Assembly (NCBI GenBank): GCA_002421785.1
Contig: DIRZ01000003.1
Span: 120,001 to 152,000 of the forward strand
Direction: 5' to 3'
DNA: 32,000 bases
Source: Candidatus Saccharimonadota bacterium
Lineage (GTDB): Bacteria > Patescibacteriota > Saccharimonadia > Saccharimonadales > Saccharimonadaceae
Shown here: piece after piece, positions 4,036 to 30,066 of the stretch
Layout: the number at the start of each line of letters is the position of its first letter
Position numbering within the stretch: position 1 is the first letter of the stretch
Made by a program: the position numbers and the translations under genes
The notes under the pieces: generated by a model
Seen by the model: the letters and a program-made list of their open reading frames with translations, nothing else
Told to the model about the DNA's origin: nothing
The model's database searches: none

Positions 4036-4064
4036 ATTATACCTGATAACATTCGAAATGTCAA
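4036..4064 (-). promoter_or_regulatory. Perfect consensus sigma70-type promoter firing leftward into the IS30 right end
   Basis: The reverse strand reads aTATTGACA-tttcgaatgttatcagg(17)-TATAAT. The -10 box ends 22 nt before IS30 IRR, and there is no ORF between the promoter and the IS. Confidence 0.6.
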
Positions 4065-4126
4065 TATGCTTATGTTCAAAAACCCAACAACGTTCAGCTG
4101 AACCGCACTGTCACCAGAGGTCGTAT

Positions 4127-4654
4127 TTATGACAAGTGGTGCTGCTGTAGCCACACATACATGGCTATGCCGGCGGCAACCCCCACATTAACGCTCCGTG
4201 TACTTCCCAACTGCTCAATGGCCACGATTCGTGAAGCGCTACGCAGCAGCTCCTCGCTAATGCCCGGTCCTTCTGCGCCAAACAGCAAGACTGGTTTAGC
4301 TGGTAGTTTCGTATGGTGAAGTGGCTCGCTTCCTGCTACATTATCGACTGCAATCAGTGTTTTATCTTGGACTGCTTTCATAAACTCATGCGGTGTCGCG
4401 TAATAGTGAATGTGCAGATATTTATCTGTCATCATGGCACCGCGCTTATTCCACTGCTTACGGCCAATCACATGGAGGTGTCGCACCCCGAAAGCGTTGG
4501 CATTGCGTACGATAGTGCCCATATTGAAGTCGCGTTCGACATTTTCGATTGCGATTTCGAGCTCAATCGGCGAACGATCCAGGTCTGCAACAATTTGCTC
4601 GTGCGGAACACCCTTGTATTTATCGATGACGTTTCGCCTATCTTGTGTTGTCAT
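4127..4654 (-). CDS. TrmH/SpoU-family RNA 2'-O-methyltransferase
   Basis: 175 aa. SpoU motifs are present: NMGTIVRNANAFGV, LLFGAEGPGIS and IEQLGSTRSVNVGVAAGIAMY. Confidence 0.8.
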   Translation of the reverse strand: MTTQDRRNVIDKYKGVPHEQIVADLDRSPIELEIAIENVERDFNMGTIVRNANAFGVRHLHVIGRKQWNKRGAMMTDKYLHIHYYATPHEFMKAVQDKTLIAVDNVAGSEPLHHTKLPAKPVLLFGAEGPGISEELLRSASRIVAIEQLGSTRSVNVGVAAGIAMYVWLQQHHLS

Positions 4655-5316
4655 GACTGAGTATTACTCCCAAGTACGTCGAGAATTATCGAGCTATCAC
4701 TCACCGTTAAACGCGTCAAAGACGCGTTCGACAATCGCGTTTTGTATACCCACTCTTGATCATAGCCTTTTATTTGGGCGACAAGCGCCTTAATCGCGGT
4801 TTCGTGAGTAACAATCAATCCACATTCGGGCAGCATAATCCCCCGCGCAGCTTCATAGGCTGCATCTTCGCGTGGAGTGTATCGCACCAAATTACCCATG
4901 CGACATACAGCCGCTTTCATTCGCTCACCGACCTCAGCTACCGACTCACCACCCGGTAGTTTAAAGTTCTTGCCTCGTTGCGCAATCTGTTCAAGTCGCT
5001 CAGGCGTATACGTCTCTATGCGTGATTGCCCTTCGAATGCCCCCTGTGACAGTTCTTGGAATGCAGGGTCAATCACCACCCTTCCCCGATAGTTCATTTG
5101 ACGTAATGCGTACGCAGCGGTGTCCATAGTGCGCACCGCAGGTGAAACCGCCACGAGCGATGGCCTGATGAGCATACGCGCCATGTATGCCCCGGCACGT
5201 TTTGCCTGATTGACACCTAATTCGCTCAATGGCGATTCGGGTGTACGACCACCAATCAGCTCTGGGCGTAAATTCGCCTGGGATTGGCCGTGTCGAAGTA
5301 GGTATAGTAGCGCCAT
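4651..5316 (-). CDS. Histidine phosphatase family protein (phosphoglycerate-mutase-like)
   Basis: 221 aa beginning MALLYLLRHGQSQAN (RHG catalytic motif). It overlaps the downstream trmH-like start by 4 nt. Confidence 0.75.
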   Translation of the reverse strand: MALLYLLRHGQSQANLRPELIGGRTPESPLSELGVNQAKRAGAYMARMLIRPSLVAVSPAVRTMDTAAYALRQMNYRGRVVIDPAFQELSQGAFEGQSRIETYTPERLEQIAQRGKNFKLPGGESVAEVGERMKAAVCRMGNLVRYTPREDAAYEAARGIMLPECGLIVTHETAIKALVAQIKGYDQEWVYKTRLSNASLTRLTVSDSSIILDVLGSNTQS

Positions 5317-5337
5317 AGCTATCCATTATGCCACAGC

Positions 5338-5361
5338 AATAAAAAAATACCCATGCGGGTA
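5338..5361 (-). terminator. Intrinsic terminator downstream of CDS 5506..5994
   Basis: The reverse strand reads TACCC-GCAT-GGGTA-TTTTTTTATTGC. It ends with the same TTTTTATTGC tail as the terminator at 2314..2343. Confidence 0.55.
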
Positions 5362-5505
5362 TAGGGGGGTGCTTACCCCAGGAGATGAACGGCGATGCGA
5401 GGACGAGAACACATTGTCTCGTCAGCACGTCCATCCCCCGGGGGTTCACACACTACTTGTATCGTTCAATCGTTACCGAGCGGCGGCGATCAAATGAGGA
5501 TGAGC

Positions 5506-5994
5506 TCAGACGTTGGCCGGCTTCTTGCCGAACACCTGCATCGGGTTCGGCACAGTGGTCGGGGACTTGACCGGGGCGGCGGAGCTGGGCTGCGTGTTGC
5601 TGCGGTACAGCTGGTTGCCGGCCCAGTACAGGGCCTCCTGGGCCCACTGCGACGCCGCCAGGGCGGCTTCGGCCGTGGCCTTGTCGTCGAAGAACGGCTT
5701 GTTCTTCTTGGTGGCGGCTTCGGCGGCGACGTGGATGGCACCCTTCAGGACCTTGCCCGTGCGGCTTTTGACCGCCCGTGCTGCCCTGAACTCCTCCATG
5801 ACGGAGAGGAAGATGACTCGCTGGGGATCATCGTCCTTCATCTTGGTGACGTCCATGGTGATGCCCTTGTTGCACTCGACGTGCTTCATCGCCATGAGGA
5901 TCTGGGGGTCGCGCTGCGCGGCGAGGCGCAGGTACTCGTCCTTGGCCTGGGTCCTGGTGCCGCCTCCGACGATGTGACGCGTGCGGTTAGGCAT
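5506..5994 (-). CDS. Hypothetical protein, GC-rich islet b (162 aa from MPNRTRH)
   Basis: ORF 5506..6006. I prefer the second ATG (5994) because GGAGG lies 5 nt upstream of it. Nearly every codon ends in G/C. The antisense ORFs 5395..6087 and 5513..5977 look like high-GC artefacts. I recognise no family. Confidence 0.7.
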   Translation of the reverse strand: MPNRTRHIVGGGTRTQAKDEYLRLAAQRDPQILMAMKHVECNKGITMDVTKMKDDDPQRVIFLSVMEEFRAARAVKSRTGKVLKGAIHVAAEAATKKNKPFFDDKATAEAALAASQWAQEALYWAGNQLYRSNTQPSSAAPVKSPTTVPNPMQVFGKKPANV

Positions 5995-6091
5995 GGTGAC
6001 CTCCATCCCTTCCCATTAGGGGAAGATTGTAGTGTGTTGAAAACTGCTGATTCCATGCGGGCGAAATGCCTCGTCATGTCATCGTGAAAGC

Positions 6092-6120
6092 ATTGTAGCA
6101 TAAACATGATAATTTGTCAA
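6092..6120 (-). promoter_or_regulatory. Near-consensus promoter for islet-b CDS
   Basis: The reverse strand reads gTATTGACA-aattatcatgtttatgc(17)-TACAAT, about 95 nt upstream of ATG 5994. Confidence 0.6.
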
Positions 6121-6150
6121 TACTATGATATCAAAATGGCGTATTCCTCA

Positions 6151-6179
6151 TTGATTACACCCCTGTTGCATGATATGAT
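6151..6179 (+). promoter_or_regulatory. Promoter of tRNA-Leu(CAG)
   Basis: TTGATT-acacccctgttgcatga(17)-TATGAT, ending 11 nt before the first tRNA nucleotide. Confidence 0.55.
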
Positions 6180-6190
6180 ACTGATAGCAT

Positions 6191-6277
6191 GCGGATGTGG
6201 CGGAATTGGTAGACGCGCTAGCTTCAGGTGCTAGTGCCCTTCGGGGCGTGGAGGTTCAAGTCCTCTTATCCGCACCA
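6191..6277 (+). tRNA. tRNA-Leu (anticodon CAG), CCA encoded
   Basis: Hand fold: acceptor GCGGATG/TATCCGC, anticodon stem CTAGC/GCTAG with loop TTCAGGT (CAG), a long variable arm GCCCTTCGGGGC, T arm GGAGG-TTCAAGT-CCTCT, and terminal ACCA. Confidence 0.9.
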
Positions 6278-6315
6278 GAATAAGAACCCAGGTTATACAC
6301 CTGGGTTTTTATTCT
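6277..6315 (+). terminator. Long hairpin terminator after tRNA-Leu(CAG)
   Basis: AGAATAAGAACCCAGGT-tatac-ACCTGGGTTTTTATTCT is a 17-bp stem with one mismatch, and the T-run lies within and after the 3' arm. Confidence 0.7.
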
Positions 6316-6346
6316 GGCTCTGTTTGGTGATTTTGAGCCTTCACCC

Positions 6347-6467
6347 CGGGGCGTGGAGGTGAGAACTGCCTGTGGCAGTTCGGAAACGAACCTTCCGATG
6401 AAAGCTGTGCTTTCAGTCGTAAAGTTCGGGGGTCGCCTAAGGTGACTAAGTCCTCTTATCCGCACCA
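6347..6467 (+). other. Partial duplicate of the tRNA-Leu(CAG) 3' end, split in the T-loop by an 87-nt structured insert (candidate tRNA-like ncRNA or att remnant)
   Basis: CGGGGCGTGGAGGT (6347..6360) equals 6242..6255, and AAGTCCTCTTATCCGCACCA (6448..6467) equals 6258..6277. In the tRNA these two blocks are 2 nt apart; here they are separated by 6361..6447, which forms three hairpins. No matching 5' acceptor strand lies upstream, so this is not a complete tRNA. Confidence 0.5.
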
Positions 6468-6469
6468 TA

Positions 6470-6501
6470 GTAAATGCCCGGGGAATTCCTCGGGCATTTA
6501 C
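6470..6501 (+). terminator. Hairpin terminator after the tRNA-like fragment
   Basis: GTAAATGCCCG-gggaattcct-CGGGCATTTAC is an 11-bp stem followed by TTTGG on the plus strand. The T-tail is better on plus than on minus. Confidence 0.55.
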
Positions 6502-6549
6502 TTTGGTGGTATACCTGCAATGAACCGGCGATATACATGCTTGTTATGC

Positions 6550-8175
6550 CTATAGACCAAACCGAGCAAGCTGGCCGGCGTCATGGCTGTCGCGGAGCAT
6601 CGCGGCCAGCTGGCGGGTATCGGTTGGTTCTTTTACCCCAGTATTCATAAACCCGTACGGATCACACACCTTGCGGATCGACGCATACATTGCAACGACC
6701 TGTTCATCCAATTGAGCATAGATAAACCGAGATTTCAAGCGCCCCTCTCCCCCCTCTGCGATCATCGTGCCACCATGCGCGTAGACCAGCTTTGTCAGGT
6801 CGTCGAGCAGCTTAAATATCCGCTGCTTATCGCTCACCTTGTGCAGCTCAAACGTCGGATACACACTATAGGTATTGGTATATACATGCCCGGCAAGCGG
6901 TAATGCAACATGGTCTTTCGCGGCTAGCTCCTGCAACGACCGAGCAAATTCCTCTAGACGTTCCGTGGGCACGTGGAACCCGCCGTAGAGGTTCGGCGCA
7001 GCCAAGCTCGCGTGATCAGGCAAGGTCGTATAGTAAGCAACATCAAGAGCCGCCAATAAATCATCGGCAGCATCACCATTCGCAAATGTCGTCGCAACAT
7101 CATCCGCATTTGCAAACATTTTCGTAATCTTTTTTAGTGCTTTTGCCCGGTGGTGCTCGCTAAAATCATCAAAGCCTATAATCACGACGCTTTCCGGCTT
7201 CAGTTTTTCGGAGGCCTGAGTATAAAAATCGTATTTACGCCCGCATGTTGCCGCAGTGTTAAAAAGTTCTGCATCGTAATATTCAACGAAGGCCGGCATC
7301 ATTTTACATAAATCATCCAATGCATCACGAGCCGCATTGGCGCTTGCAAACACCAATGCCGCGACTCCGTAATGAAGGCTGCGATATTCTGCACGTAAAA
7401 TCATTTCAGTAATAATGCCAAGCGTGCCCTGACTCCCAATAAATAACGGTGTAAGGTCGAAGCTACCATCCTTTTGCTTTACGTCCGCAATAGTGTTGTA
7501 CCCAGTAGCATCATTTGAGCGCAAGTTATCAAGGATGTCTGCACTTTCTTCAATAATGCCATCGATTCCGCGGTAAATATCGCCTTCGAACGTCTGCAGG
7601 CCCTTGCGTCGGCTCAGCTCGCGCTTGTTGATCCGGCCCGTTTGAATAACATCACCGTTCGCCAGTACAACCTCGAGCTGATCAATCGCTCGTTCAATGG
7701 TGCCATACTTACCGGCCAGCGGCCCTGCGACCGCACTGGCAATTGCGCCACCGATTGTTCCAAAAACCTGCGAGCCTGCGAGCGACATAATAGAAGTGCC
7801 ATGAAGCGAGAGTGCCTGCGATAAGGCACCTATGGCTACTCCTGGCTGCAAACGCACCAATTTCTGCTTTGCATCATACTCAAAAATTTTGTTCATATGG
7901 GCGGTCGTCACGACAGACGCCCCCTTGCCAATCGCCGCACCGGTACCGTCTGTCCCAGCGCCGCGCACGGTAACAGGAATAACATGGCCCTTTTCTGCAA
8001 GTTGCCAAGCAAACCGGCAAACCTTACGAATATCATTTGTAGAGCGGGGATAAATTACCATTTCAGGAACAATTTTCAGGACACCCGCATCTGTACTCAT
8101 TGCCTCTCGGACATCGGTGCGGGTAGAAACTTCGCCTGTTAAATGACCGCGTAGATAGGTCGCAACCTTACTCAT
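6550..8175 (-). CDS. FAD-binding oxidoreductase (GlcD / D-lactate dehydrogenase-like, PCMH-type FAD domain)
   Basis: 541 aa. The N-terminal FAD-binding region reads PEMVIYPRSTNDIRKVCRFA...VTVRGAGTDGTG...GTIGGAIA. Confidence 0.7.
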   Translation of the reverse strand: MSKVATYLRGHLTGEVSTRTDVREAMSTDAGVLKIVPEMVIYPRSTNDIRKVCRFAWQLAEKGHVIPVTVRGAGTDGTGAAIGKGASVVTTAHMNKIFEYDAKQKLVRLQPGVAIGALSQALSLHGTSIMSLAGSQVFGTIGGAIASAVAGPLAGKYGTIERAIDQLEVVLANGDVIQTGRINKRELSRRKGLQTFEGDIYRGIDGIIEESADILDNLRSNDATGYNTIADVKQKDGSFDLTPLFIGSQGTLGIITEMILRAEYRSLHYGVAALVFASANAARDALDDLCKMMPAFVEYYDAELFNTAATCGRKYDFYTQASEKLKPESVVIIGFDDFSEHHRAKALKKITKMFANADDVATTFANGDAADDLLAALDVAYYTTLPDHASLAAPNLYGGFHVPTERLEEFARSLQELAAKDHVALPLAGHVYTNTYSVYPTFELHKVSDKQRIFKLLDDLTKLVYAHGGTMIAEGGEGRLKSRFIYAQLDEQVVAMYASIRKVCDPYGFMNTGVKEPTDTRQLAAMLRDSHDAGQLARFGL

Positions 8176-8280
8176 ATATTTCCCCTGTTAGACTCATTGT
8201 CACTAGTATAACATAAGGATATTCCATTCATAAACACGCTATTGGTCGACAACTTAGTTTCACTATTCAACAATATCCGC

Positions 8281-8853
8281 ATGACAAGTCCCGAGATATC
8301 ACCTGCACGATTACCATACCACCTAATGCCGCGCACAGTCGGCAACCTCGAAATTGAATCGCCTCGATTCATAAACCCCGATCGCGTCTATTTGCGCGAC
8401 GATACAGGTGAGCTATTCGTCTACTCAGACGACTTACTTGACAGTGCGACAAGAAACCCTAGGGCCCTTATGGGTAAAGTCGGGCTGATGAAAGCCGTGA
8501 TTACAGACCCCGAGCTAACGAATACACAGCACCTCCTCACAGGCTATGTTGTAGATCTGCGGTTCGTGCCTTCAACCGACAAGTTTGACGCTGCTCCCCC
8601 TGCCGAGAAGCCAGATGATGACGAAGCCAACGCTTGGCTCGAAGATATGAAGACACTCGTACCCATTGCCTCGATTGCCTTTACGCACGAACAGGGCTCG
8701 AAAGAAATTGACACAACAGGTGATGCTCGATTTGCTAAAGCCGCCCTCCATCTTGCATCACTTGCAGACGAGCTCGACCATAAGCTCAAGCAGCAAGCAA
8801 AGGTCGCTACCAATAAGCCAACGAGAAAAACGTCGAAAGCACGCAAAAAATAA
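8281..8853 (+). CDS. Hypothetical protein (acidic core, K-rich C-terminal tail)
   Basis: ORF 8242..8853. The track start is a TTG, and the first ATG is at 8281, so the start is uncertain. I recognise no family. Confidence 0.5.
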   Translation: MTSPEISPARLPYHLMPRTVGNLEIESPRFINPDRVYLRDDTGELFVYSDDLLDSATRNPRALMGKVGLMKAVITDPELTNTQHLLTGYVVDLRFVPSTDKFDAAPPAEKPDDDEANAWLEDMKTLVPIASIAFTHEQGSKEIDTTGDARFAKAALHLASLADELDHKLKQQAKVATNKPTRKTSKARKK

Positions 8854-8885
8854 CGAGAATATGATACAATTGTCATACACATCTT

Positions 8886-8970
8886 GCGGATGTGGTGGAA
8901 TTGGTAGACACGCTAGCCTTAGGAGCTAGTGCCTCCGGGCGTGAAGGTTCAAGTCCTTTCATCCGCACCA
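8886..8970 (+). tRNA. tRNA-Leu (anticodon TAG), CCA encoded
   Basis: Hand fold: acceptor GCGGATG/CATCCGC, anticodon stem CTAGC/GCTAG with loop CTTAGGA (TAG), a long variable arm, T arm GAAGG-TTCAAGT-CCTTT, and terminal ACCA. Confidence 0.9.
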
Positions 8971-8972
8971 AC

Positions 8973-9004
8973 GCAAAAAGACTGGCTACTGCCAGTCTTT
9001 TTGC
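8973..9004. terminator. Bidirectional hairpin terminator
   Basis: GCAAAAAGACTGGC-tact-GCCAGTCTTTTTGC is a 14-bp perfect stem with A/T runs on both sides. It lies between the tRNA (+) and CDS 9021..10034 (-). Confidence 0.75.
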
Positions 9005-9020
9005 GTAGCTTTGTACTAAA

Positions 9021-10034
9021 TTACCAGTTCCGAACCCAGAATTGTTGGGTCTTATTAAATATTTTGTAACCGTTTTGATCTGTACTAGCCGACCAGCCAA
9101 AATCATTGCTGTTGAGCCATCCATAGTGTCGCTCCAAAGCACCAATTCGCGTGTTACCATTCATGCCCACGGCATTGAACCACCCGTAGTCGCTAACCGT
9201 TCCGGTTCGTTTTACATCTGGATCTGATGCGCACGTTGCCCCAGCCTGCCATGACACATTGAAGTTCGTGTTCCACAGACTTTGGTGAATCGCTCTGTGG
9301 TCTCCATGGTCGTAACGGTAGCAGTTCGAGTATCTGGCGTTCCTGTATGGACCAACTATATTATAAAATGGAATGCTCGGTAGGCCATAAAGACTTGGGT
9401 TGTCTCGGATTGATCTGATTGCCCAGTCGACCTCATCTTGAGTCAAGTCACCGTCGCCGAGGTTAAAGAATATGACTCGACCCTTGGCGCTATTGTTGCT
9501 AGCAAATGGTTCACTACTCGAATAGAAGACCTTTGCTGAGCTATCTTGGATGAGCGTAGATCCTGCATCAACATGCCCAAGCGATTTGCCCTGAGAATTT
9601 GGCCATACAGTTGTCGACCTGCTCATAGAAAAGCCGCCCGGTATGGCGCTATCTGTCTGAGACATCGTATTTAAGAAGCCTAACGTTGAAGATATTCGTG
9701 CGTTATGGCATTGGGTAGACCACCTAGCATTAGGCAGCACGCTTGGAGAAACCTCATTCCAATGAGTCTGCAGGCTAGGGTTGGCGCAATAAGCGGACTG
9801 CTCGCCACGCGTAAAATAGACAAACACTTTGTAATTGTCTGACGATCCCTCAATCAAGGACCAAGCTTCGAGCTCGTCATCTGGGTGAGGCATAGCCACA
9901 ATCTGCATATGAATTGGTGCGGCCATAACCTCGGCGTCCGTAAATACACTAAAAGACAACGATGTTACGACTAGCGCCAAAGCCGCTAAAGGTAGCGTCA
10001 GACCTTGCTTAATTCGGTGCATTATTTTGTTCAT
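9021..10034 (-). CDS. Secreted protein with PIG-L/LmbE-like deacetylase signature
   Basis: 337 aa. There is an N-terminal signal peptide (LTLPLAALALVVTSLSFSVFTDA) followed by QIVAMPHPDDELEAW, matching the (A/P)HPDDE motif of PIG-L/LmbE deacetylases. AAGGAG lies upstream of the ATG. Confidence 0.6.
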   Translation of the reverse strand: MNKIMHRIKQGLTLPLAALALVVTSLSFSVFTDAEVMAAPIHMQIVAMPHPDDELEAWSLIEGSSDNYKVFVYFTRGEQSAYCANPSLQTHWNEVSPSVLPNARWSTQCHNARISSTLGFLNTMSQTDSAIPGGFSMSRSTTVWPNSQGKSLGHVDAGSTLIQDSSAKVFYSSSEPFASNNSAKGRVIFFNLGDGDLTQDEVDWAIRSIRDNPSLYGLPSIPFYNIVGPYRNARYSNCYRYDHGDHRAIHQSLWNTNFNVSWQAGATCASDPDVKRTGTVSDYGWFNAVGMNGNTRIGALERHYGWLNSNDFGWSASTDQNGYKIFNKTQQFWVRNW

Positions 10035-10065
10035 GTTTCTCCTTTTTTATTAATAATCCCCATAA

Positions 10066-10095
10066 ATAATAGCACGAACATTTTAGGGCGTGCAA
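10066..10095 (-). promoter_or_regulatory. Candidate promoter of CDS 9021..10034
   Basis: The reverse strand reads TTGCAC-gccctaaaatgttcgtgc(18)-TATTAT. Confidence 0.4.
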
Positions 10096-10420
10096 TCATG
10101 GAAGTAATCAGGAATTCATCCTTAGGCGGGACTGCCGAATGACGCCAAGAAATCGTCTTTCCTAGCAGTAATTTGTCAGTTTTCGTGATCATGCGCTCTA
10201 CTACGTCGTTAACTATGGGTTTACGATTTTGTTTTTAGGTTTAAGGTCTAATTCCGGTCGTTCTTATGTTTGCTTATCACAATCTATTCTGGCGCAATAA
10301 CCCATTAGGACAGACTATATGTCAAATCGTTAATAGTGGACTTCCAGGGCGGATAAATGGAGCGTACGGATACGCTTTGTTGACCCGCTCTGGAAAGAGT
10401 TAGGTCAACAAAGGATAGCT

Positions 10421-10639
10421 ATGATCAGTGTACGGCAGCGAAAGACGAAGTCTTTCACCGAGAAGCTCAAGGGATGTTTTGATCAGGGCAAGTTCCTGTG
10501 TGTCGGACTGGACCCGTCGGAGAAGGAGCTTGAGAAGGTCCATAACCGCAACTCCGCCGAAGACACTCTGGAGTACCTGACCGACATTGTCAACGCGATC
10601 GCCTCGTTCGCGACAGCGTTCAAGCCGAACTTCGGGTAG
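10421..10639 (+). pseudogene. pyrF: 5' fragment (72 codons) of a type-2 orotidine-5'-phosphate decarboxylase gene
   Basis: The sequence ...KGCFDQGKFLCVGLDPS...ASFATAFKPNFG* carries the FLCVGLD and (A/Y)KPN motifs of long-form PyrF. It stops where KPNxxFFE would continue, and the remaining roughly 200 codons are absent. An AAGGA SD precedes the ATG. Confidence 0.6.
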
Positions 10640-10830
10640 TCGACGAAGTCCCGGCCGTCGATCTGGAGCCCTACAAGGCCGAGATCGCAGCCAAGTGCAG
10701 CGTCATCGCCGTCAAGCGACCGCACAGTTCCGGCTACACTCCCGCTCAGGCAGGATTCGCCATGGGCGCATGGCACGACGACCCCGACCACAACGACCCC
10801 TACGAGAACACACGAGAAGACTACCGATGA
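10639..10830 (+). pseudogene. Start-less 3' fragment of an unidentified GC-rich gene, stop overlapping the E1-like start (ATGA)
   Basis: Hand translation gives VDEVPAVDLEPYKAEIAAKCSVIAVKRPHSSGYTPAQAGFAMGAWHDDPDHNDPYENTREDYR*. The frame is open only back to a TAA at 10543..10545, with no ATG/GTG/TTG codon upstream of residue V1. Its codons are strongly G/C-ending. Confidence 0.5.
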
Positions 10831-11567
10831 CCGACCCCTTCACCCTGACCGTCGACGACACCGAGGATGGCATGCTCTACACGGCCGTTCGCCAGAACGC
10901 ACCGGACTGGGCAGACCAGACCGGCTGGTTCGATCCCGACAAGGCGACCTCACCCGTCACCATCATCGGGTGCGGCGGCATCGGCAGCAATGTGGCGTTC
11001 GAGCTCATCACGATGGGCTTCAAGCGCTTCGTGCTGTACGACGATGACATCGTCGAGCCGCGGAACCTTGTCTCTCAGAAGGCGTTCCGCCCTCGCGACC
11101 TCTACCGTCCCAAGGTGGAGGCGCTTGCGGAAGTACTCATCGAGTACGGCGCCGTCGAGGTGCTGGTTCGCCGGCGTCTCTTCACTGCCGAAGACATCAT
11201 CGAAGGTGCCATCGTCATCGGTGCCGTCGACTCCATGAGGTCCCGCAAGATCATCTGGGAGGCAGTCACCAATTCGCCGGATGTCGAGCTCTACCTCGAT
11301 GGACGACTGGGCGGCCAGACCGCCCAGATCTTTGCCATCGAGCCGCTCGACGGCGACTGGTACGAGGCCGACTGGCTGTTCGACGACAGCGAGGCGACGA
11401 CCGGGATCACCTGCACGATGCGTGCCATCGTGTACCCCTCGACCGTCATGGCCGGCATCATGTGCCGCCACCTCTCGAGGTGGTCACGCGGCCAGTCGGT
11501 GTGCCGGTTCACACAGTGGGAGGGATCCACGAACGAGATCACCACGTTCGGAGACATCGAGGAGTGA
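10827..11567 (+). CDS. ThiF/MoeB-family E1-like adenylyltransferase (246 aa, minimal, orphan)
   Basis: ORF 10587..11567 trimmed to ATG 10827, because the upstream extension is RSPRS-rich nonsense from a TTG. Motifs: Rossmann IIGCGGIGSNVAFEL, YDDDIVEPRNLVSQ (the DxDxVexsNLxRQ type), RPKVEALAEVL and GAVDSMRSRKII. Confidence 0.8.
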   Translation: MTDPFTLTVDDTEDGMLYTAVRQNAPDWADQTGWFDPDKATSPVTIIGCGGIGSNVAFELITMGFKRFVLYDDDIVEPRNLVSQKAFRPRDLYRPKVEALAEVLIEYGAVEVLVRRRLFTAEDIIEGAIVIGAVDSMRSRKIIWEAVTNSPDVELYLDGRLGGQTAQIFAIEPLDGDWYEADWLFDDSEATTGITCTMRAIVYPSTVMAGIMCRHLSRWSRGQSVCRFTQWEGSTNEITTFGDIEE

Positions 11568-11572
11568 GACCA

Positions 11573-11610
11573 GCGGAGACCCCTGGGCACTTGTGCCTGA
11601 GGGTCTCCGC
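11573..11610 (+). terminator. GC-only hairpin after the E1-like gene
   Basis: GCGGAGACCC...GGGTCTCCGC is a 10-bp perfect stem with an inner GGCAC/GTGCC helix and no T-tail. Confidence 0.6.
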
Positions 11611-11714
11611 GACCGACCACGAATGATAAAGTCGTGCTGATGAGCTGTAGACAGCGAATCGGTCAAATCTATTACAAAGCTAGGCAACAATGCACCATAC
11701 CGTGCATACTACCA

Positions 11715-12140
11715 CTACTCCTCTGGGTATTTACTCGGGTCACCAAGACAATAGCGTACCCATCGTGAATCCTGCTCAACCGTGATGCTTTCAATATAGT
11801 CACCATTATCGAACTTGCCGCGTTTCGCAGCCTTGGCCTCACTCGCAGCAGCCGTCATGGCGTCGGTCACTCCATAATGTTTTTTGAGCGCGACGACGAC
11901 GTCCTCCAGATCAGCAATCTCTGCGACAATTTCACCAAATTCTGCTTTAGTTGGGCTATCGGTGACTGGAATCTCATCCGCCTCTTCATGAACCTTCGCA
12001 ATAAGCTCACGAATTAGCTCAATGCCGTGCAGCGTTCGATGGGACATGCCAACAACCGACGCTTCTTCCTGATAGTCCGGGACTGTCCTGTCACGAACAA
12101 GCTTCCTAAAATAAAATGTCCTGGGTTGTTGCTCGCTCAT
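11715..12140 (-). CDS. MazG-like all-alpha nucleoside triphosphate pyrophosphohydrolase family protein
   Basis: ORF 11715..12290 trimmed to ATG 12140, which has GGAGGAAGGG upstream. The opening MSEQQPRTFYFRKLVRDRTVPDY and an acidic helical core (EEADEI...EIADLEDV) resemble the house-cleaning NTP-PPase family. Confidence 0.55.
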   Translation of the reverse strand: MSEQQPRTFYFRKLVRDRTVPDYQEEASVVGMSHRTLHGIELIRELIAKVHEEADEIPVTDSPTKAEFGEIVAEIADLEDVVVALKKHYGVTDAMTAAASEAKAAKRGKFDNGDYIESITVEQDSRWVRYCLGDPSKYPEE

Positions 12141-12183
12141 TTTCCCTTCCTCCATTCGATGGGATGAACCTATCAAATATAGC

Positions 12184-12420
12184 TTACCACTCTCCTTCCT
12201 GAAGTGCCACCGCACCCATATAATGACGTCGAGCCATGTCCAGTTGTTCCTGGAGCCGACACTGTTCTTCGAATGACGCGCCCGCAGCAATTCCGCGCCT
12301 CAGTAGTATTTGCGCCTGCCATGTCGAAAACTCTGCACCCAGATTCCTCGTTCGGGGCAAAAAAATAGACCCCAATGGGTCGAATGCGTCGATTTGTTTT
12401 GCGTGTTCACCGTTTGTCAT
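12184..12420 (-). CDS. Hypothetical small protein (78 aa)
   Basis: ORF 12184..12444 trimmed to ATG 12420. It lies between rsmD and the MazG-like gene on the same strand. I recognise no family. Confidence 0.4.
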   Translation of the reverse strand: MTNGEHAKQIDAFDPLGSIFLPRTRNLGAEFSTWQAQILLRRGIAAGASFEEQCRLQEQLDMARRHYMGAVALQEGEW

Positions 12421-12453
12421 ATCCCCCCTATAAAAAATCGCCAATCGGCGAAA

Positions 12454-13002
12454 TTAACCAACTCGGCGGAAGGAGGTGAGGTGTGCATTTCCATAACTAC
12501 GATTGTCCACCACAACAATTCCGAGTTCACTTAGATTTGGTACCTCACCTCTTCCTGTATGGGATAATACCATAAGCCCATTGGGTTTGAGAATAGCAAA
12601 TAACTTACTAACTGTGGATAACTGCAAATCATGGTATGGCGGGTCAGCGAATATGATGTCATAGTAATCTGGCTTGGCAGTCTCAATCCACGCATTTACA
12701 GATGATCGAATAATTTGACTTTGCTCATCGGCACCTAGCGAAACCACATTTTTGGCTAACACCTTTTGCGCGATTTTATCACGCTCCACGAATGTACATG
12801 CCTTCGCGCCACGACTCAGCGCTTCCAGGCCTATCGACCCCGTCCCTGCAAATGCGTCCAGCACCCGTGCACCGACAATTTCATCGACAATGCTATTGAA
12901 CATCGCGTTGCGTACCCGCTCACCCATCGGGTGAGTGCGACCGCTATCAGGCGCGTCTATCTTGCGACCACCGTATTTTCCCGAAATGATTCGGATAAAC
13001 AT
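12454..13002 (-). CDS. rsmD: 16S rRNA (guanine966-N2)-methyltransferase RsmD
   Basis: ORF 12454..13107 trimmed to MFIRIISGKYGGRKI. Motifs include GRTHPMGERVRNAMFN, LDAFAGTGSIGLEALSRGA and FADPPY. The start overlaps the upstream stop as TAATG. Confidence 0.85.
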   Translation of the reverse strand: MFIRIISGKYGGRKIDAPDSGRTHPMGERVRNAMFNSIVDEIVGARVLDAFAGTGSIGLEALSRGAKACTFVERDKIAQKVLAKNVVSLGADEQSQIIRSSVNAWIETAKPDYYDIIFADPPYHDLQLSTVSKLFAILKPNGLMVLSHTGRGEVPNLSELGIVVVDNRSYGNAHLTSFRRVG

Positions 13003-13808
13003 TACAGCCCAGCCTCGCGGTACGCGGTATACCATGCATAGGTAACCATGCGAATAATCTCTGGCAATAGCGCTTCCCGGCTCTGCCTGGCAAGTTTTGC
13101 GGTCCATCCTTGGCTCCAGAATGTTTGATACATATTTAGCGCATAGACATGCTGCACTGAATGGAGAAACACTTCGTCGAGGGGCAGTTTCTCTGCGCGC
13201 TTAAACCATGCGCCACTAGGCGTGGTATCCAAAAACCTCGTCGTTTTAATACTTGTCGCAATACCCAGCTCGAAAAGCCCATGCGTAATGAACACACCCT
13301 TTGCACCCCAGTACTCCCAGTTTTTACTGATTGTATCGCGTTTATTTTTACCTTTAATCAAGTTTTTGTCTTTTATCGTCAGTCGCTCTTCTTTAGGCTT
13401 TCCCCAAAGCTCTTCGATTTTGTCACCTAGTGGATAGTGATGCGCCGGGGTCAATCCGTCGACAATCGCATGCGCCATCCAGGCCGCTTCGAACGCTGCA
13501 CGAGCATGATTGCGCGTACGAAGCGCGTGAACGAGATTATGATGGTGGTCAAGGATCATATCGGCTAGCTCTCGATCGTCAGGCTGCGAAGGGTCAATAT
13601 AATGCCATGGCTCGTCCTGACTAGGGCTTTTCCTTTTAATGCCGTCGGGTCCATTGTCGCCTTCAAAGTGAAGTATTTCGCGTATTCCAGGGAAGCCGGG
13701 CCCCACGCCAGGAATGGTGCGCAAATTACGTCGCGCAACTCGGTCAATCTTTTGATGAACACCTATAAAGTGTCCTGATTTGTTTCGGATTGTTGTACCA
13801 GAATACAT
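13002..13808 (-). CDS. Hypothetical His-rich protein (possible metal-dependent hydrolase, zinc phospholipase C-like)
   Basis: 268 aa with clusters of His/Asp (WHYIDP, DHHHNLVHAL, AHAIVDGLTPAHHYP). The family assignment is a weak impression only. Confidence 0.55.
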   Translation of the reverse strand: MYSGTTIRNKSGHFIGVHQKIDRVARRNLRTIPGVGPGFPGIREILHFEGDNGPDGIKRKSPSQDEPWHYIDPSQPDDRELADMILDHHHNLVHALRTRNHARAAFEAAWMAHAIVDGLTPAHHYPLGDKIEELWGKPKEERLTIKDKNLIKGKNKRDTISKNWEYWGAKGVFITHGLFELGIATSIKTTRFLDTTPSGAWFKRAEKLPLDEVFLHSVQHVYALNMYQTFWSQGWTAKLARQSREALLPEIIRMVTYAWYTAYREAGL

Positions 13809-13857
13809 ATTGATTTATATTTTAACAGAAACTCCGCAATAACGCTCTTGTTGTTTA

Positions 13858-13886
13858 TTGACTCTATTCCGAAAAAATGCTATAAT
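13858..13886 (+). promoter_or_regulatory. Near-perfect promoter of islet-d small ORF
   Basis: tTATTGACT-ctattccgaaaaaatgc(17)-TATAAT, followed by AGGAG (13906..13910) 5 nt before ATG 13916. Confidence 0.65.
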
Positions 13887-13915
13887 TGCTATACTGTCGA
13901 ACCTTAGGAGTACGG

Positions 13916-14113
13916 ATGAGCAAGCACTTCTTCATCATCACCTTGAACAGCCTACGTCCCGGCGAGAACGCTACGGTTACATGGAGCGGCACTTGCAATG
14001 GCATTGACGACCCCCAGTTGCGTTACCAAAGCATCTTCAACCAGGCGTGCGCCAATTTCGACCTCCCTCCTGGCAGGACATCGGTCATCTTCTACTCAAT
14101 TGAGAAGATGTAA
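13916..14113 (+). CDS. Hypothetical microprotein, islet d (65 aa)
   Basis: ORF 13886..14113 trimmed to MSKHFFIITLNSLRPGENATVTWSGTCNGIDDPQLRYQSIFNQACANFDLPPGRTSVIFYSIEKM. It has a strong promoter, an SD and a terminator, and a C-ending codon bias. I recognise no family. Confidence 0.55.
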   Translation: MSKHFFIITLNSLRPGENATVTWSGTCNGIDDPQLRYQSIFNQACANFDLPPGRTSVIFYSIEKM

Positions 14114-14122
14114 CATCTACCC

Positions 14123-14164
14123 GCCCCGGCCCGTTGCAGGCTTTCAGCCTCCGGAGTCCGGGGC
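14123..14164 (+). terminator. GC-rich compound hairpin after islet-d ORF
   Basis: The outer stem is GCCCCGG/CCGGGGC and the inner stem AGGCT-ttc-AGCCT, followed by TGTTTG. Confidence 0.55.
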
Positions 14165-14179
14165 TGTTTGCTACACTGC

Positions 14180-16213
14180 TTAGTTTAGCGTTGTTAGTCG
14201 CTGGTAATACTGCACCTGATCGTTCAACTCCTTGTATTGTACCAAATCATGACCGCTTTCAATAAATGTCTTTGCTGCTTGTTGGGCGCGCGCGATGAGC
14301 TTTGTATCTGCCAAGGTGGCGATTTGAAGATTCAAGGCTCCGTGCTGTGCCTTACCATAAATTTCACCTGGCCCACGTAGCTCCATGTCTACTTCAGCGA
14401 GGTAGAAGCCGTCGGTACTTTTTTCAATCTCCTCCAGCCGTCTCGACGGCTTATTGGTTGTACTGAGCATCAAATAACAATAGCTTTGGTGTTTGCCGCG
14501 ACCAACGCGTCCACGAAGCTGATGTAACTGGCTGAGCCCAAATTGATCAGCGTTTTCAATAATCATAACGGTGGCATTCGGTACATCTACGCCCACCTCC
14601 ACAACCGTCGTACTGACGAGTATGTCGTACTTGCCCGATTTAAAGTCCTGCATCACCTGATCTTTTTCGGATGGTTTCATTTTACCATGAAGTAACCCGA
14701 TTGAACGATGGCCGAATACGCTATTCTTCAATCGCTTATGCTCTGCTTGGACGCTCTTAATCTCATTGTCCGGGTTGTCATTAATAAGGCTGCAAACAAC
14801 GTAGACCTGGCGACCCGCCGAAATCTCCTGATCAATATGTCCGTAGATGGTTTTGGCGCTAATCGGCGATACAAGCTTCGTCTTAATGGGCATCCGGTTA
14901 GCGGGCAGTTCATTTAGCACACTAACATCAAGCTCACCATACACCGTTAACGCTAAACTGCGAGGAATCGGTGTGGCTGTCATTGCAAGCAAATGCGGTA
15001 AATGCTCGGATTTTGCAAGCAGCCGCTGTCGCTGATCTACTCCAAACCGGTGCTGCTCATCAATGACCACGAATCCGAGGCGTTTAAACGATACCTTATC
15101 TTGAATAAGCGCATGCGTTCCAACGACAACGTCAACCTCACCGTTCGCAATCTGCTCGTAGAGCGTCGCGCGCGCTTTGCCTTTAACGCTCCCTACCAGA
15201 AGGCCGACACGCACGCCGAATGGCGCAAGGAGTGTTTGGAGAGTTTCCGCGTGCTGGTTCGCCAAAATCTCGGTTGGTGCCATCAAAGCAGTCTGGAACC
15301 CTGCATCGGCGGCCTGGCGTGCCGCAAGTCCAGCAACGACCGTCTTACCGCTTCCCACGTCACCCTGAAGGAGGCGGTTCATAGGTACCGCACGCTCAAA
15401 ATCTTGCAAGATATCCCATGCCGCGCGACGCTGCGCACCAGTGAGCGTAAATGGTAGCTGCTCAACAAACTGCTTGACCACTGGCTGCTGAAATGGAATA
15501 TGCCACCCTTCCAGTTTCGAGTTCTCAAGCTTGTTAAGCTGGCTTGCCAACAGAAGTTCAAACAATTCTTCAAATGCCAGTCGTTCGCGCGCACGCGCTA
15601 CCTGTTCCATTGTTTCCGGAAAATGCATCGAGCCAACTGCATCTGCTCGGGTTATAAGATTCTCGGCAGCCACAACACTAGGTGGAAGTGTTTCTGGCAA
15701 TACACCCATGAGTGGTCGCAATGTTTCAAGTACCTTTCGCACCACTTGACTCTTCAACCCATGGATACTCCGATACACTGGCATTAGCCGTTCTGCTTGG
15801 ACCGGCAAATCACGTGCAAGCTCGGCACTCGGGTTTGTTAGTTGATACCGCCCGTAGTTATACTCGAATTCGCCGCTAAAATAGAATTCGTCATTACTCC
15901 CCCCTAGCTGCTGTGTACGGTACGGCTGATTAAACCATACCGCATTCAGTTTACCGCTTTCGTCAGTGAGCACGGCTGTCGTAAGTCTGAGACCACGGCG
16001 AACCGTCCGAGTGCTAATCTTTTCACACCGAGCCTTTATTGTTGCTTTTCCAGGTTGTATGTCAGCGATACTTACGACACCCGTAAAATCTTCGTGGCGA
16101 CGCGGCAAAAACATAATCAACTGCGCAACCGTTAATAGCCCGGCAGCACGCAGCTGGTCGGCCGTCTTTGGACCGACGCCTTTGATTTGCTCTACGCTTG
16201 TGGAAAGATTCAT
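14180..16213 (-). CDS. recG: ATP-dependent DNA helicase RecG
   Basis: 677 aa. It has an N-terminal wedge/OB region, helicase motifs GDVGSGKTVVA and DEQHRFG, and the C-terminal RGRVGRG. Confidence 0.92.
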   Translation of the reverse strand: MNLSTSVEQIKGVGPKTADQLRAAGLLTVAQLIMFLPRRHEDFTGVVSIADIQPGKATIKARCEKISTRTVRRGLRLTTAVLTDESGKLNAVWFNQPYRTQQLGGSNDEFYFSGEFEYNYGRYQLTNPSAELARDLPVQAERLMPVYRSIHGLKSQVVRKVLETLRPLMGVLPETLPPSVVAAENLITRADAVGSMHFPETMEQVARARERLAFEELFELLLASQLNKLENSKLEGWHIPFQQPVVKQFVEQLPFTLTGAQRRAAWDILQDFERAVPMNRLLQGDVGSGKTVVAGLAARQAADAGFQTALMAPTEILANQHAETLQTLLAPFGVRVGLLVGSVKGKARATLYEQIANGEVDVVVGTHALIQDKVSFKRLGFVVIDEQHRFGVDQRQRLLAKSEHLPHLLAMTATPIPRSLALTVYGELDVSVLNELPANRMPIKTKLVSPISAKTIYGHIDQEISAGRQVYVVCSLINDNPDNEIKSVQAEHKRLKNSVFGHRSIGLLHGKMKPSEKDQVMQDFKSGKYDILVSTTVVEVGVDVPNATVMIIENADQFGLSQLHQLRGRVGRGKHQSYCYLMLSTTNKPSRRLEEIEKSTDGFYLAEVDMELRGPGEIYGKAQHGALNLQIATLADTKLIARAQQAAKTFIESGHDLVQYKELNDQVQYYQRLTTLN

Positions 16214-16991: not shown

Positions 16992-17043
16992 ACACTCTAG
17001 TATACATCAGCTCGGCAATACTGCGACAACACCTTTAGTGGCG

Positions 17044-26898: not shown

Positions 26899-26928
26899 AT
26901 TGTACCAAAAATAATTAGCACTCGTCAA
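26899..26928 (-). promoter_or_regulatory. clpC promoter
   Basis: The reverse strand reads TTGACG-agtgctaattatttttgg(18)-TACAAT, followed by GGAGG 4 nt before ATG 26859. Confidence 0.6.
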
Positions 26929-26941
26929 GTGAGAGTGCTAA
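26915..26941. promoter_or_regulatory. CIRCE element (HrcA operator), perfect consensus
   Basis: TTAGCACTC-gtcaagtga(9)-GAGTGCTAA matches the established CIRCE consensus TTAGCACTC-N9-GAGTGCTAA at 18 of 18 arm positions. It overlaps the -35 of the clpC promoter. Confidence 0.85.
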
Positions 26942-28247: not shown

Positions 28248-28481
28248 CTAGGGGGCGGGATTGGTAAGTGAAGCCACCGTCACAACTGACCACGATTGGC
28301 CCTTGGGAAGCTGGTTTTGACGCGTGTGGTAGCAGCAATCACTAAAGCTCCCCACGATGTCGGTCGTCTCCCTCAGTGCCTCAAGGGCACCATTTAGCAG
28401 ACGAGTCTCGGTAACGAGCAGGAGCGTGTAGGGCACGATGCCGGTACCAGGAGTACGTCGGCACCGCGTGGGCTCAACCAT
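28248..28481 (-). CDS. Hypothetical protein, GC-rich islet e (77 aa); coding status uncertain
   Basis: ORF 28248..28571 trimmed to ATG 28481, which has GAGAGGA 6 nt upstream. The sequence is MVEPTRCRRTPGTGIVPYTLLLVTETRLLNGALEALRETTDIVGSFSDCCYHTRQNQLPKGQSWSVVTVASLTNPAP. Its stop lies inside the palindrome CCCCCTAGGGGG (28244..28255). It could instead be a structured RNA. Confidence 0.35.
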   Translation of the reverse strand: MVEPTRCRRTPGTGIVPYTLLLVTETRLLNGALEALRETTDIVGSFSDCCYHTRQNQLPKGQSWSVVTVASLTNPAP

Positions 28482-28544: not shown

Positions 28545-28571
28545 ATTATACTCTTTTTTGATATTTGTCAA
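28545..28571 (-). promoter_or_regulatory. Candidate promoter of islet e (short 15-nt spacer)
   Basis: The reverse strand reads gTATTGACA-aatatcaaaaaagag(15)-TATAAT. Its -35 shares nucleotides with the queA -35 on the other strand. Confidence 0.45.
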
Positions 28572-28594
28572 TACTGCCGTCGGTGGGCTATACT
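28565..28594 (+). promoter_or_regulatory. queA promoter (leaderless-type)
   Basis: TTGTCA-atactgccgtcggtgggc(18)-TATACT, then 8 nt to ATG 28603 with no SD. Confidence 0.5.
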
Positions 28595-28602
28595 ATTGCA
28601 AT

Positions 28603-29631
28603 ATGAATCTGTCTGATTTCTACTACGATATCCCAGAAGCCCTCGTGGCAACTGAGCCACCCAAAGAACGCGGAGATGCGCGGCTACTTGTACTTGACCG
28701 GGACACAGGCGCGATTACTGATAGGACTTACGCAGACGTCACCGAGTACCTCAACCCGGGTGATGTGCTAGTGATTAACGACACGAAGGTAATAAAAGCG
28801 CGCCTTATAGCGACAAAGCCTAGTGGCGGCGAGCGCGAGCTTGTCCTCGTCGAAAAGCATGGCCGTAGCGACGACTGGCATACGCACAAGGTGCTCTACC
28901 GGCGGAAACTTAAAGAAGGCGATGAACTCTACGTCGGGGACAATAAACTTATCGTCGAACGTATCTTAGGTGATGGCCTGGCGATTGTTCAGAGCAGCCG
29001 CGATCTACTCGAAATCGCCGAGGAGCACGGTTCGGTGCCGCTCCCTCCCTACATGCATCGAGATGCCACCGAGGCAGACGTGGAACGCTACCAGACGATT
29101 TTTGCGCGCGAACAAGGTAGCGTTGCTGCACCAACCGCTAGCCTAAATATGACAGCTGAGACCCTTGCTGCTTTGCAGGCAAAAGGAATTGTTGTCACGT
29201 ACGCCACGCTCCACGTGGGGCTTGGCACGTTTTTGCCAATTCGCGTCGACGACCTGACTGATCATAAAATGCATAAAGAATACTTTGAAGTGCCTGCGAC
29301 TACCATTCAAGCAATTCGCGAGGCAAAGGCAGGCGGTCATAGAGTAGTAGCGCTCGGGACAACCGTCACTCGAACGCTCGAGTACGCGCACGAACAAATC
29401 CTGGCGGGGCCAACCGTAGATATCTCTGGAGAAGCAGATATATTTATGTACCCCGGCTATGAGTTTAAGACAATCGATGGGCTACTCACTAATTTTCACA
29501 TGCCGGAGAGTACGGTCCTGATGCTCACCGCTGCTTTTGCTGGCTGGGACAAGCTAGGGCCTGCGTACGAGCACGCTGTTGCGCAGGAATATCATTTCTT
29601 TAGCTACGGCGATAGCATGCTTATCCTATAA
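28603..29631 (+). CDS. queA: S-adenosylmethionine:tRNA ribosyltransferase-isomerase QueA
   Basis: ORF 28558..29631 trimmed to MNLSDFYYDIPEALVATEP. Later motifs include VPLPPYM, ERYQTIFA, GSVAAPTASLN and GTTVTRTLE. Confidence 0.92.
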   Translation: MNLSDFYYDIPEALVATEPPKERGDARLLVLDRDTGAITDRTYADVTEYLNPGDVLVINDTKVIKARLIATKPSGGERELVLVEKHGRSDDWHTHKVLYRRKLKEGDELYVGDNKLIVERILGDGLAIVQSSRDLLEIAEEHGSVPLPPYMHRDATEADVERYQTIFAREQGSVAAPTASLNMTAETLAALQAKGIVVTYATLHVGLGTFLPIRVDDLTDHKMHKEYFEVPATTIQAIREAKAGGHRVVALGTTVTRTLEYAHEQILAGPTVDISGEADIFMYPGYEFKTIDGLLTNFHMPESTVLMLTAAFAGWDKLGPAYEHAVAQEYHFFSYGDSMLIL

Positions 29632-29636
29632 AAAGT

Positions 29637-29675
29637 GCTCGTGCCATCACTGCTTGTTGCAGCGACGGCACGAGC
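29637..29675. terminator. GC-rich hairpin shared by convergent queA and islet-f ORF
   Basis: GCTCGTGCC-(21 nt with inner CTGC/GCAG)-GGCACGAGC is a 9-bp perfect outer stem. Confidence 0.55.
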
Positions 29676-29689
29676 CTCACCGGCGAGCC

Positions 29690-30001
29690 CTACAGGAACA
29701 GGGAGATGATCGAGTCGGGCTCTGCTAGAACACGGTCAACGGCAGCGAGGCCGAGTGCGGTCAGCGTCCACTGCCCGTCGATGCTGACAAGCAGCCCGCC
29801 AACCTGCAGGTTCGCAAGGGAGTCGGCCTTGACCGAATCCGGACGAGCATCGATGAAGAGCATCGGCGTCGTGTTCATCTGGCCGCGCCGCTGATACTCG
29901 GACAGCTGCACCGCGTAGATGCCGCCGACGATGTCGTCGCGCAGGACCTGCGCGGCCTCCTCGATGTCAGTGTCGGCCAGTAGGGGTTCTTGGGTGGCCA
30001 T
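29690..30001 (-). CDS. Hypothetical protein, GC-rich islet f (103 aa, possible winged-helix C-terminus)
   Basis: ORF 29690..30016 trimmed to the second ATG (30001), which has GAGAGGAG 5 nt upstream. The codons are G/C-ending. The C-terminal ADSLANLQVGGLLVSIDGQWTLTALGLAAV resembles a recognition-helix plus wing pattern, which is a weak impression. Confidence 0.6.
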   Translation of the reverse strand: MATQEPLLADTDIEEAAQVLRDDIVGGIYAVQLSEYQRRGQMNTTPMLFIDARPDSVKADSLANLQVGGLLVSIDGQWTLTALGLAAVDRVLAEPDSIISLFL

Positions 30002-30037
30002 AGCCACTCCTCTCATTTGTAGGTACGAGGTGTTCTA

Positions 30038-30066
30038 TTTATATCATAGTTTTACGTAATTATCAA
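30038..30066 (-). promoter_or_regulatory. Promoter of islet-f ORF
   Basis: The reverse strand reads aTATTGATA-attacgtaaaactatga(17)-TATAAA. Confidence 0.55.

Follow-up and report, generated by a model that had tools for sequence, protein, structure and literature searches.

Why should five small and unrelated genes, dispersed among the housekeeping genes of a single bacterial chromosome, all stand behind one kind of promoter? The question is raised by a 32,000-nt stretch of a Saccharibacteria genome of 0.81 Mb (Candidatus Saccharimonadota bacterium, GenBank assembly GCA_002421785.1, contig DIRZ01000003.1, positions 120,001 to 152,000; hereafter, the window). Five open reading frames (ORFs) of deviant base composition, the islets a, b, d, e and f, have as their neighbours the housekeeping genes hisS, spoU, recG, nusA, queA and tgt. 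A preliminary description of the window had proposed that these islets are served by a promoter type with an extended -35 element, TATTGAYW-N15-17-TANAAT, and that they constitute a dispersed, co-regulated or commonly derived family of expression cassettes. We report here that the packaging of this promoter with a small GC-rich ORF recurs in related genomes and is apparently undescribed. The origin of the DNA is clear from its genes: among 185,579 species genomes, the 80 that come closest in spoU are Saccharibacteria metagenome-assembled genomes (60-73% identity), and the gene content fits that assignment, the genome being small, with few biosynthetic genes and a pilin-like protein.

Exactly five sites in the window match the pattern TATTGAYW-N15-17-TANAAW, where 0.02 are expected from dinucleotide-preserving shuffles, none of which ever reached five. 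The matches have the positions, spacers and -10 hexamers originally described, and they are the only strict consensus promoter matches (see below) in the window. On the minus strand, promoter a (4036-4066) reads TA-TTGACA-17-TATAAT (12/12 hexamer match), promoter b (6092-6122) TA-TTGACA-17-TACAAT (11/12, with TG at -15/-14), promoter e (28545-28573) TA-TTGACA-15-TATAAT (12/12) and promoter f (30038-30068), the weakest of the five, TA-TTGATA-17-TATAAA (10/12); promoter d, on the plus strand (13856-13886), reads TA-TTGACT-17-TATAAT (11/12, with TG at -15/-14). By the hexamer test all five are of the sigma-70 type, and the spacer measures 17 nt in a, b, d and f. The 15 nt of promoter e fall outside the usual 17 +/- 1 (its orthologue in the related locus L091 has 16), and it is because of this spacer that promoter e was missed by a generic sigma-70 scan, in which promoters a, b and d came out as the three top-scoring sigma-70-like sites of positions 1-16000. 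The octamer TATTGAYW alone is not over-represented in the window (six observed vs 3.2 expected); five copies belong to the cassette promoters, and the remaining one is found 48 nt upstream of d. A 13-mer, ATTTGTCAATACT, is common to promoters b and e and was found at 6112-6124 and 28563-28575, as noted before, and nowhere else in the window.

The backbone promoters with which the islets had been contrasted are as described and do not carry the TA: nusA (28226-28198; TTGACT-17-TATATT), clpC (26928-26899; TTGACG-18-TACAAT), tRNA-Leu (6151-6179; TTGATT-17-TATGAT) and queA (28565-28594, plus strand; TTGTCA-18-TATACT). The last of these overlaps back to back with promoter e on the minus strand (28545-28594); their -35 boxes have TTGTCAA/TTGACAA in common, so that a competition between the two for polymerase is possible.

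The association of TA with islets was assessed in a comparison set of 110 Saccharibacteria loci (approximately 1.46 Mb) around spoU and queA. Sites with the strict consensus TTGAYW-N15-18-TANAAW were collapsed into 74 independent clusters, which were assigned to the islet class when the site had downstream an ORF with a Shine-Dalgarno (SD) sequence and a GC content at third codon positions (GC3) of at least 0.70. TA directly 5' of the -35 box occurs in 17 of the 18 islet clusters and in 15 of the 56 others (Fisher p=3e-7); the link between TA and GC3-rich ORFs thus extends to these loci. Against a background of 7.1% for TA before any TTGAYW, the other consensus sites are themselves enriched about threefold. 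A logo was made of 24 islet promoters that had been chosen blind to their flanks, by the hexamers only. It has T(-37) in 22/24 and A(-36) in 21/24, followed by TTGACA, three A-rich positions at the start of a spacer nearly devoid of G and C, T(-15) in 17/24, G(-14) in 16/24 and then TATAAT. There is no conservation in this logo upstream of -37, in mid-spacer or after the -10 box, and neither dyad nor direct-repeat symmetry is visible around the motif.

At the rpoB promoters of about 23 lineages, TTGACA is nearly always present and is preceded by TA in about three; the rpoB promoter of the window's own genome reads CG-TTGACA-17-TATAGT. The TA is not exclusive to islets, since it also occurs at an EF-Tu promoter, at some rpoB promoters and at a few others. 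We considered that the TA could be a target-site duplication of a Tc1/IS630-like element and set this aside, as no matching inverted end was seen 3' of the cassettes (read by eye, no systematic search).

The explanation that we favour, with a confidence a little better than even, is that the five sites would be housekeeping sigma-70-type promoters, each dedicated to one autonomous mini-gene, and that TA would belong to an extended optimum shared by convergence. The proposed unit would consist of a near-consensus promoter, a leader of 30-100 nt, a strong SD, an orphan ORF of 65-170 amino acids (aa) and, mostly, a terminator-like hairpin. The cassette genes, placed between unrelated housekeeping operons, would be unable to borrow the signals of the latter. 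The optimum (TA, TTGACA, the A-rich start of an A/T-rich 17-nt spacer, frequent TG at -15/-14 and TATAAT) would give them strong transcription independent of any regulator; judging from the sequence, these promoters are probably in use, strong and responsible for high expression. TA would be near-obligatory in the consensus of this gene class and might act in polymerase binding, and the promoters would then be alike because they had converged on one functional optimum, without having an origin in common.

The anatomy of the individual cassettes is as follows. ORF b (5506-5994, minus strand; 162 aa, family B, GC3 0.91, SD GGAGG) probably starts at 5994 and is preceded by a 5' untranslated region (UTR) of 97 nt (5995-6091) with a hairpin ahead of the SD; a terminator-like hairpin is found at 5347-5362. 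Another such hairpin (14149-14163) follows ORF d (13916-14113, plus strand; 65 aa, GC3 0.74, SD AGGAG). ORF f (29690-30001, minus strand; GC3 0.82, SD GAGAGGAG) encodes 103 aa from its second ATG at 30001, which is probably the start, and has on its 3' side a strong bidirectional terminator hairpin (29637-29675) common to queA. Terminator-like hairpins are thus present after b, d and f. Directly after ORF e (28248-28481, minus strand; 77 aa, GC3 0.66, SD GAGAGGA) come the nusA promoter and gene, and transcription of cassette e may continue into nusA.

In cassette a, an IS30-family element of 1,066 bp (2949-4014, plus strand; transposase with HTH_38 at 3002-4000; 23-nt terminal inverted repeats) is inserted in the 5'UTR, antisense to ORF a (2392-2898, minus strand; 168 aa, family A, GC3 0.83, SD GAGGAG at 2905-2910), and parts promoter a from its ORF. 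Its transposase is the sole recombinase in the window. A -10-like TATATT at the end of the element points toward ORF a. The uninterrupted state is extant in the related locus L004, where cassette a consists of TATTGACT-17-TATAAT, a 59-nt leader and then the ORF. Accordingly, the original statement that the promoters face islet ORFs holds in so far as each site faces an SD-bearing ORF, with the correction that ORF a and its promoter are no longer neighbours. The alleged contrast in SD sequences is weaker than claimed: SD strings do occur upstream of all five ORF starts, but about half of the backbone genes also have an SD-like motif.

The GC3 of 24 backbone genes ranges from 0.43 to 0.60 and that of the islets from 0.66 to 0.91, while the GC content of first (GC1) and second (GC2) codon positions in the islets is near the backbone values. 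The islets are ORFs with GC-saturated synonymous sites, rather than blocks of GC-rich DNA. The term "GC-rich islet" is therefore apt for ORFs that are compositionally odd, but its hint of foreign DNA is not sustained, since only third positions are concerned and none of the protein families was found outside Saccharibacteria. In distant orthologues of families B and A, codon identity at conserved residues equals the expectation from codon usage alone, at GC3 values of 0.84-0.96. High GC3 despite synonymous turnover, together with normal GC1 and GC2, indicates that GC3 is maintained and not inherited from a foreign donor, with selection on the message or GC-biased gene conversion as candidate causes. 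The codon bias of highly expressed genes was set aside as the cause of the high GC3, as the small number of translation genes at hand (rplT, infC) reach only 0.49-0.60. High GC3 is not confined to small ORFs either: in a close relative, an ORF for a 672-aa SPFH/Band-7 domain protein between clpC and nusA (L091, 1806-3824) has a GC3 of 0.90; no strict consensus promoter was seen upstream of it.

The proteins encoded by ORFs a, b, d, e and f belong to unrelated families. Scans with Pfam, PHROGs, NCBIfam and PADLOC gave no match for any of the five, and ten further cassette proteins from relatives gave no family match except Band_7 in one large ORF. Likewise, there was no match in tblastn searches of a and b against 50,697 phage genomes, nor in scans of viral contigs with a, b and f. 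Family B comprises 11 clusters among 1.84 billion representative proteins, and family A has nine close matches among 5.8 billion proteins. The AlphaFold model of family A (predicted local distance difference test, pLDDT, of 75) has no fold match in PDB or BFVD, and that of family B (pLDDT 56) is too poor for use.

Family B sits between tRNA-Leu and the HisPhos-SpoU gene pair in the window and in loci L004, L049 and L085; in L149 it lies directly upstream of SpoU and in L148 the order relative to HisPhos is different, while the contigs of the B copies L147 and L150 are short, with flanks that are not readable. All B copies have the same promoter type and a GC3 of 0.88-0.96, and promoter b itself is conserved in L004, L049, L085, L147 and L150. 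Family A comes right after SpoU in the window, L004, L019 and L072. A syntenic homologue of ORF d, 66 aa long and 32% identical, is found in L143, and one of ORF e (46% identity) in L091, where the promoter reads TA-TTGACA-16-GATAAT. As a, b, d and e are matched by syntenic homologues elsewhere, these four ORFs are real genes, and for them the earlier assertion that the islets are not random junk can be upheld. In the more distant relatives L094, L097-L099 and L135, queA is directly followed by tgt, where the window and its close relatives have extra ORFs; the nusA-queA slot is empty in distant relatives, too. Among close relatives, whose nusA is about 90% identical, the GC3-rich ORFs that occupy the nusA-queA and queA-tgt gaps are different ones. 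Hence, some cassettes are syntenic across species and others come and go.

A comparison of the window with L004 points to recombination in cassette b. In the flanking SpoU and HisPhos genes, synonymous divergence (dS) is saturated and nonsynonymous divergence (dN) is 0.15-0.22, and in cassette b dN is 0.20 and dS 0.24 (dN/dS ~0.8-0.9). A three-way alignment (window 5200-6400, L004 500-1800 and L150) resolves the cassette into a mosaic, its segments resembling the window, L004 or L150. Inside ORF b there is a stretch in which the window and L004 are 100% identical; the L150 cassette combines a window-like promoter and leader (95-100%) with a divergent ORF core (~60%) and an L004-like trailer (97-100%). 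This mosaic structure implies that pieces of the cassette have been exchanged between lineages by recombination.

The leaders of families A and B contain a segment whose complement is found just past the stop codon, the two forming a helix of 7-13 bp. In the window, both pairs being on the minus strand, the 5' and 3' arms are located at 2914-2922 and 2380-2388 in cassette a (AACCCGACT / AGTCGGGTT), and at 6029-6037 and 5448-5456 in cassette b (ACACACTAC / GTAGTGTGT). The arm sequences change between orthologues and their complementarity is kept, as in the a cassettes of L019 (CCCCGAC / GTCGGGG) and L072 (GTCCCGAC / GTCGGGAC) and in the b cassettes of L085 (CCACTGCTAC / GTAGCGGTGG), L147 (GCACGAC / GTCGTGT) and L069 (CCCCCTACA / TGTAGGGGG); in L049, the 3' arm covers the SD. 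Over 25 cassettes, the helices of cognate leaders and trailers are longer than those of cross-family pairs (mean 8.2 vs 7.0; Mann-Whitney p=3e-4). This test of cognate against non-cognate arms is alignment-free; MAFFT misaligned the divergent arms in the UTRs of family B. Whole-UTR RNAduplex energies were too noisy to be useful. Cassettes d and f are without leader-trailer arms, and e has only a weak and distal match. For families A and B, the pairing suggests a contact between both ends of the mRNA at the RNA level.

Several observations weigh against convergence on a housekeeping optimum. Not all five promoters are optimal, given the 15-nt spacer of e and the TTGATA/TATAAA of f. The 56 clusters outside the islet class include chance intragenic matches, which dilute their TA frequency, and under a looser definition restricted to intergenic sites, TA precedes 12/19 islet promoters (a weaker figure) and 24/134 backbone promoters (18%), a contrast that is less extreme and still strong. 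Moreover, the loci were drawn from only two genomic neighbourhoods, those of spoU and queA, rather than from whole genomes. Finally, if TA were a general strengthener, one would expect it at more rpoB promoters than about 3 in 23, and its scarcity there leaves room for a factor specific to the cassettes. The main rival, which we judge unlikely, takes up this point: TA, the -35 box and the A-rich start of the spacer (TATTGACAAA) could together be the operator of a regulator or the site of a second sigma-70-family factor, making the cassettes a co-regulated regulon that is switched, for instance, by host contact. T(-37) and A(-36) are indeed conserved like hexamer bases, yet most rpoB promoters, whose TTGACA is the same, do without them; 13-18 nt are common to promoters b and e, and the overlap of a regulator site (a CIRCE-like repeat) with the -35 boxes of clpC and clpP, elsewhere in the same genome, indicates that operator-in-promoter designs exist here. 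Against this rival, both hexamers are canonical for the housekeeping type, TA also occurs at an EF-Tu promoter and some rpoB promoters, no dyad or direct-repeat symmetry, as would befit a classical operator, is visible around the motif, and no candidate regulator gene is linked to the cassettes.

The uniformity of the promoters before unrelated ORFs could alternatively stem from a shared origin, if a mobile promoter module, or a promoter together with its slot, had been copied around the genome and had captured different ORFs. Slot contents do differ between close relatives, cassette b swaps segments between lineages and some ORFs are bracketed by short complementary arms inside the promoter-to-terminator unit. 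We nevertheless hold this to be quite improbable and cannot maintain the earlier suggestion that the cassettes are commonly derived: an alignment of the five promoter regions revealed no similarity beyond the functional elements, with none upstream of -37 or in mid-spacer, and the logo is equally blank there and after the -10 box; no shared repeats, att-like sites or recombinase genes were found flanking the cassettes; and the arms differ between families, being absent from d and f and weak and distal in e. With ORFs that are unrelated and promoters alike at functional positions only, a shared functional optimum fits better than common descent. Even less credit is due to a recent import from GC-rich donors, either actinobacterial hosts or phages, with strong promoters recruited or evolved afterwards, which is largely refuted for a, b and the further islet c (see below). 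Cultivated Saccharibacteria live on Actinobacteria, whose codon usage the GC3 of 0.8-0.96 resembles, and the variable slot contents of close relatives would also fit. Import should, however, have raised GC at all codon positions, and GC1 and GC2 are near the backbone; homologues of A, B and the ThiF-like protein of islet c occur only in Saccharibacteria-type contexts (5.8 billion and 1.84 billion proteins searched), phage and viral collections gave no matches, and A and B are syntenic across species with GC3 high even after synonymous turnover. That AT-rich intergenic stretches should have fitted a loose pattern by chance is scarcely conceivable. The pattern was admittedly written after the sites had been seen, and the octamer alone is hardly in excess (6 vs 3.2), but the full pattern is (5 vs 0.02), all five sites are correctly oriented and spaced before SD-bearing ORFs, and the association is reproduced in independent genomes.

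Beyond convergence on a promoter optimum, the cargo suggests a biological role: being lineage-specific and fast-evolving, and in at least one case exchanged piecewise, the cassette genes may encode conflict or host-interaction proteins. A more far-reaching proposal, which we put forward tentatively and consider doubtful, is that they would form a mini-gene class built for context-independent expression, characterised by a maximal promoter with the class-specific TA at -37/-36, a strong SD, GC-saturated synonymous sites, often an RNA clamp and a hypervariable, recombining orphan protein. TA would then be a dedicated recognition step, read by a factor or by a polymerase contact, the proteins would be interaction or defence effectors, and codon usage would be under selection, e.g., for survival of the message during attack on the host or for its use in a GC-rich actinobacterial host.

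The promoters can be compared with the sigma-70/sigma-A consensus promoters of Escherichia coli, Bacillus subtilis and early phage genes that have an extended -10 (TGn) and A/T-rich flanks, and with which they share TTGACA, TATAAT, the A/T-rich spacer of 17 nt and frequent TG at -15/-14; consensus promoters of this kind are presumably strong and constitutive. The textbook sigma-70 definition does not include the near-invariant T(-37)A(-36), which here marks one gene class and not strong promoters in general, and we regard the cassette promoter as a probable sigma-70 type with an unreported two-base extension. The phage T7 A1 and A2 promoters, which we take to read TATTGAC, provide a lead only. 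The cassettes resemble phage morons in having their own promoter, mostly a terminator-like hairpin, small ORFs without known function and a deviant composition, and in sitting between genes that are adjacent in relatives (queA-tgt). Unlike morons, they reside in a cellular chromosome with no phage genes nearby and no PHROG or viral-contig matches; they are GC-richer instead of AT-richer, at synonymous sites only, several are ancient and syntenic, and they have one promoter type. With integron cassettes they have in common that the many small ORFs are mostly orphans and that the content varies between relatives; however, there is no attC-like shared element, integrase or array here, and every unit brings along a promoter, which integron cassettes usually lack. 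Pairing between 5'UTR and 3'UTR, as in icaR of Staphylococcus aureus and hbs of B. subtilis, is the counterpart of the leader-trailer helix of families A and B, except that here it occurs in several unrelated cassettes of one gene class and with covarying arms. In a full-text search of the literature, neither this promoter class nor GC3-rich orphan genes nor leader-trailer pairing turned up for Saccharibacteria.

Saccharibacteria live as obligate epibionts; their genomes are tiny, their regulators few, and to our knowledge almost nothing is known about their gene-expression signals. A promoter class defined by its sequence offers a ready-made, predicted strong promoter for new genetic tools in the phylum and flags a short list of lineage-specific, fast-evolving candidates for functions in host interaction or conflict. 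GC saturation that is limited to synonymous sites and persists over deep divergence, beside ordinary genes, could be due to selection acting on the mRNA, to biased gene conversion where recombination has its hot spots or to something stranger, and as the cassettes can be found by a simple scan for motif and GC3, its origin is now testable. We expect the class to be of moderate to high interest for workers on Saccharibacteria.

Islet c (10827-11567, plus strand) is a lone ThiF/E1-like gene with a GC3 of 0.86, which is without this promoter type and is not among the five; homologues of its family were found only in Saccharibacteria-type contexts. In other genomes, the ThiF homologue belongs to a JAB-ThiF operon, in which the genes likewise have a high GC3 and a promoter each. 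The block comprises five genes (L143, 1987-7312; L145, 2192-5675), for a 471-aa protein, an 83-103-aa protein with a weak, below-threshold SAMP2-like match, Prok-JAB, ThiF and a 438-aa protein. It may represent a ubiquitin-like conjugation or defence system; in the window, ThiF alone remains. The ORF at 10421-10639 was considered as a pyrF fragment; Pfam does not support this, and it has no family match.

Rfam matches in the window are limited to two tRNAs. After tRNA-Leu(CAG) (6191-6277) there is a second copy of its 3' part, with an interruption of ~87 nt in the T-arm (6347-6467). The partial duplication is conserved in a related species (L004, ~500-730), and the corresponding locus in L085 holds a serine recombinase/TetR block. 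The arrangement has the look of an old integration site, and a tRNA-derived RNA is another possibility.

Lastly, the -35 boxes of the clpC promoter (window 26899-26940) and of the clpP promoter (L001, ~17030-17070) lie inside CIRCE-like inverted repeats, GCACTC-N9-GAGTGC, which suggests heat-shock control of the HrcA type in this Saccharibacterium and its relatives.

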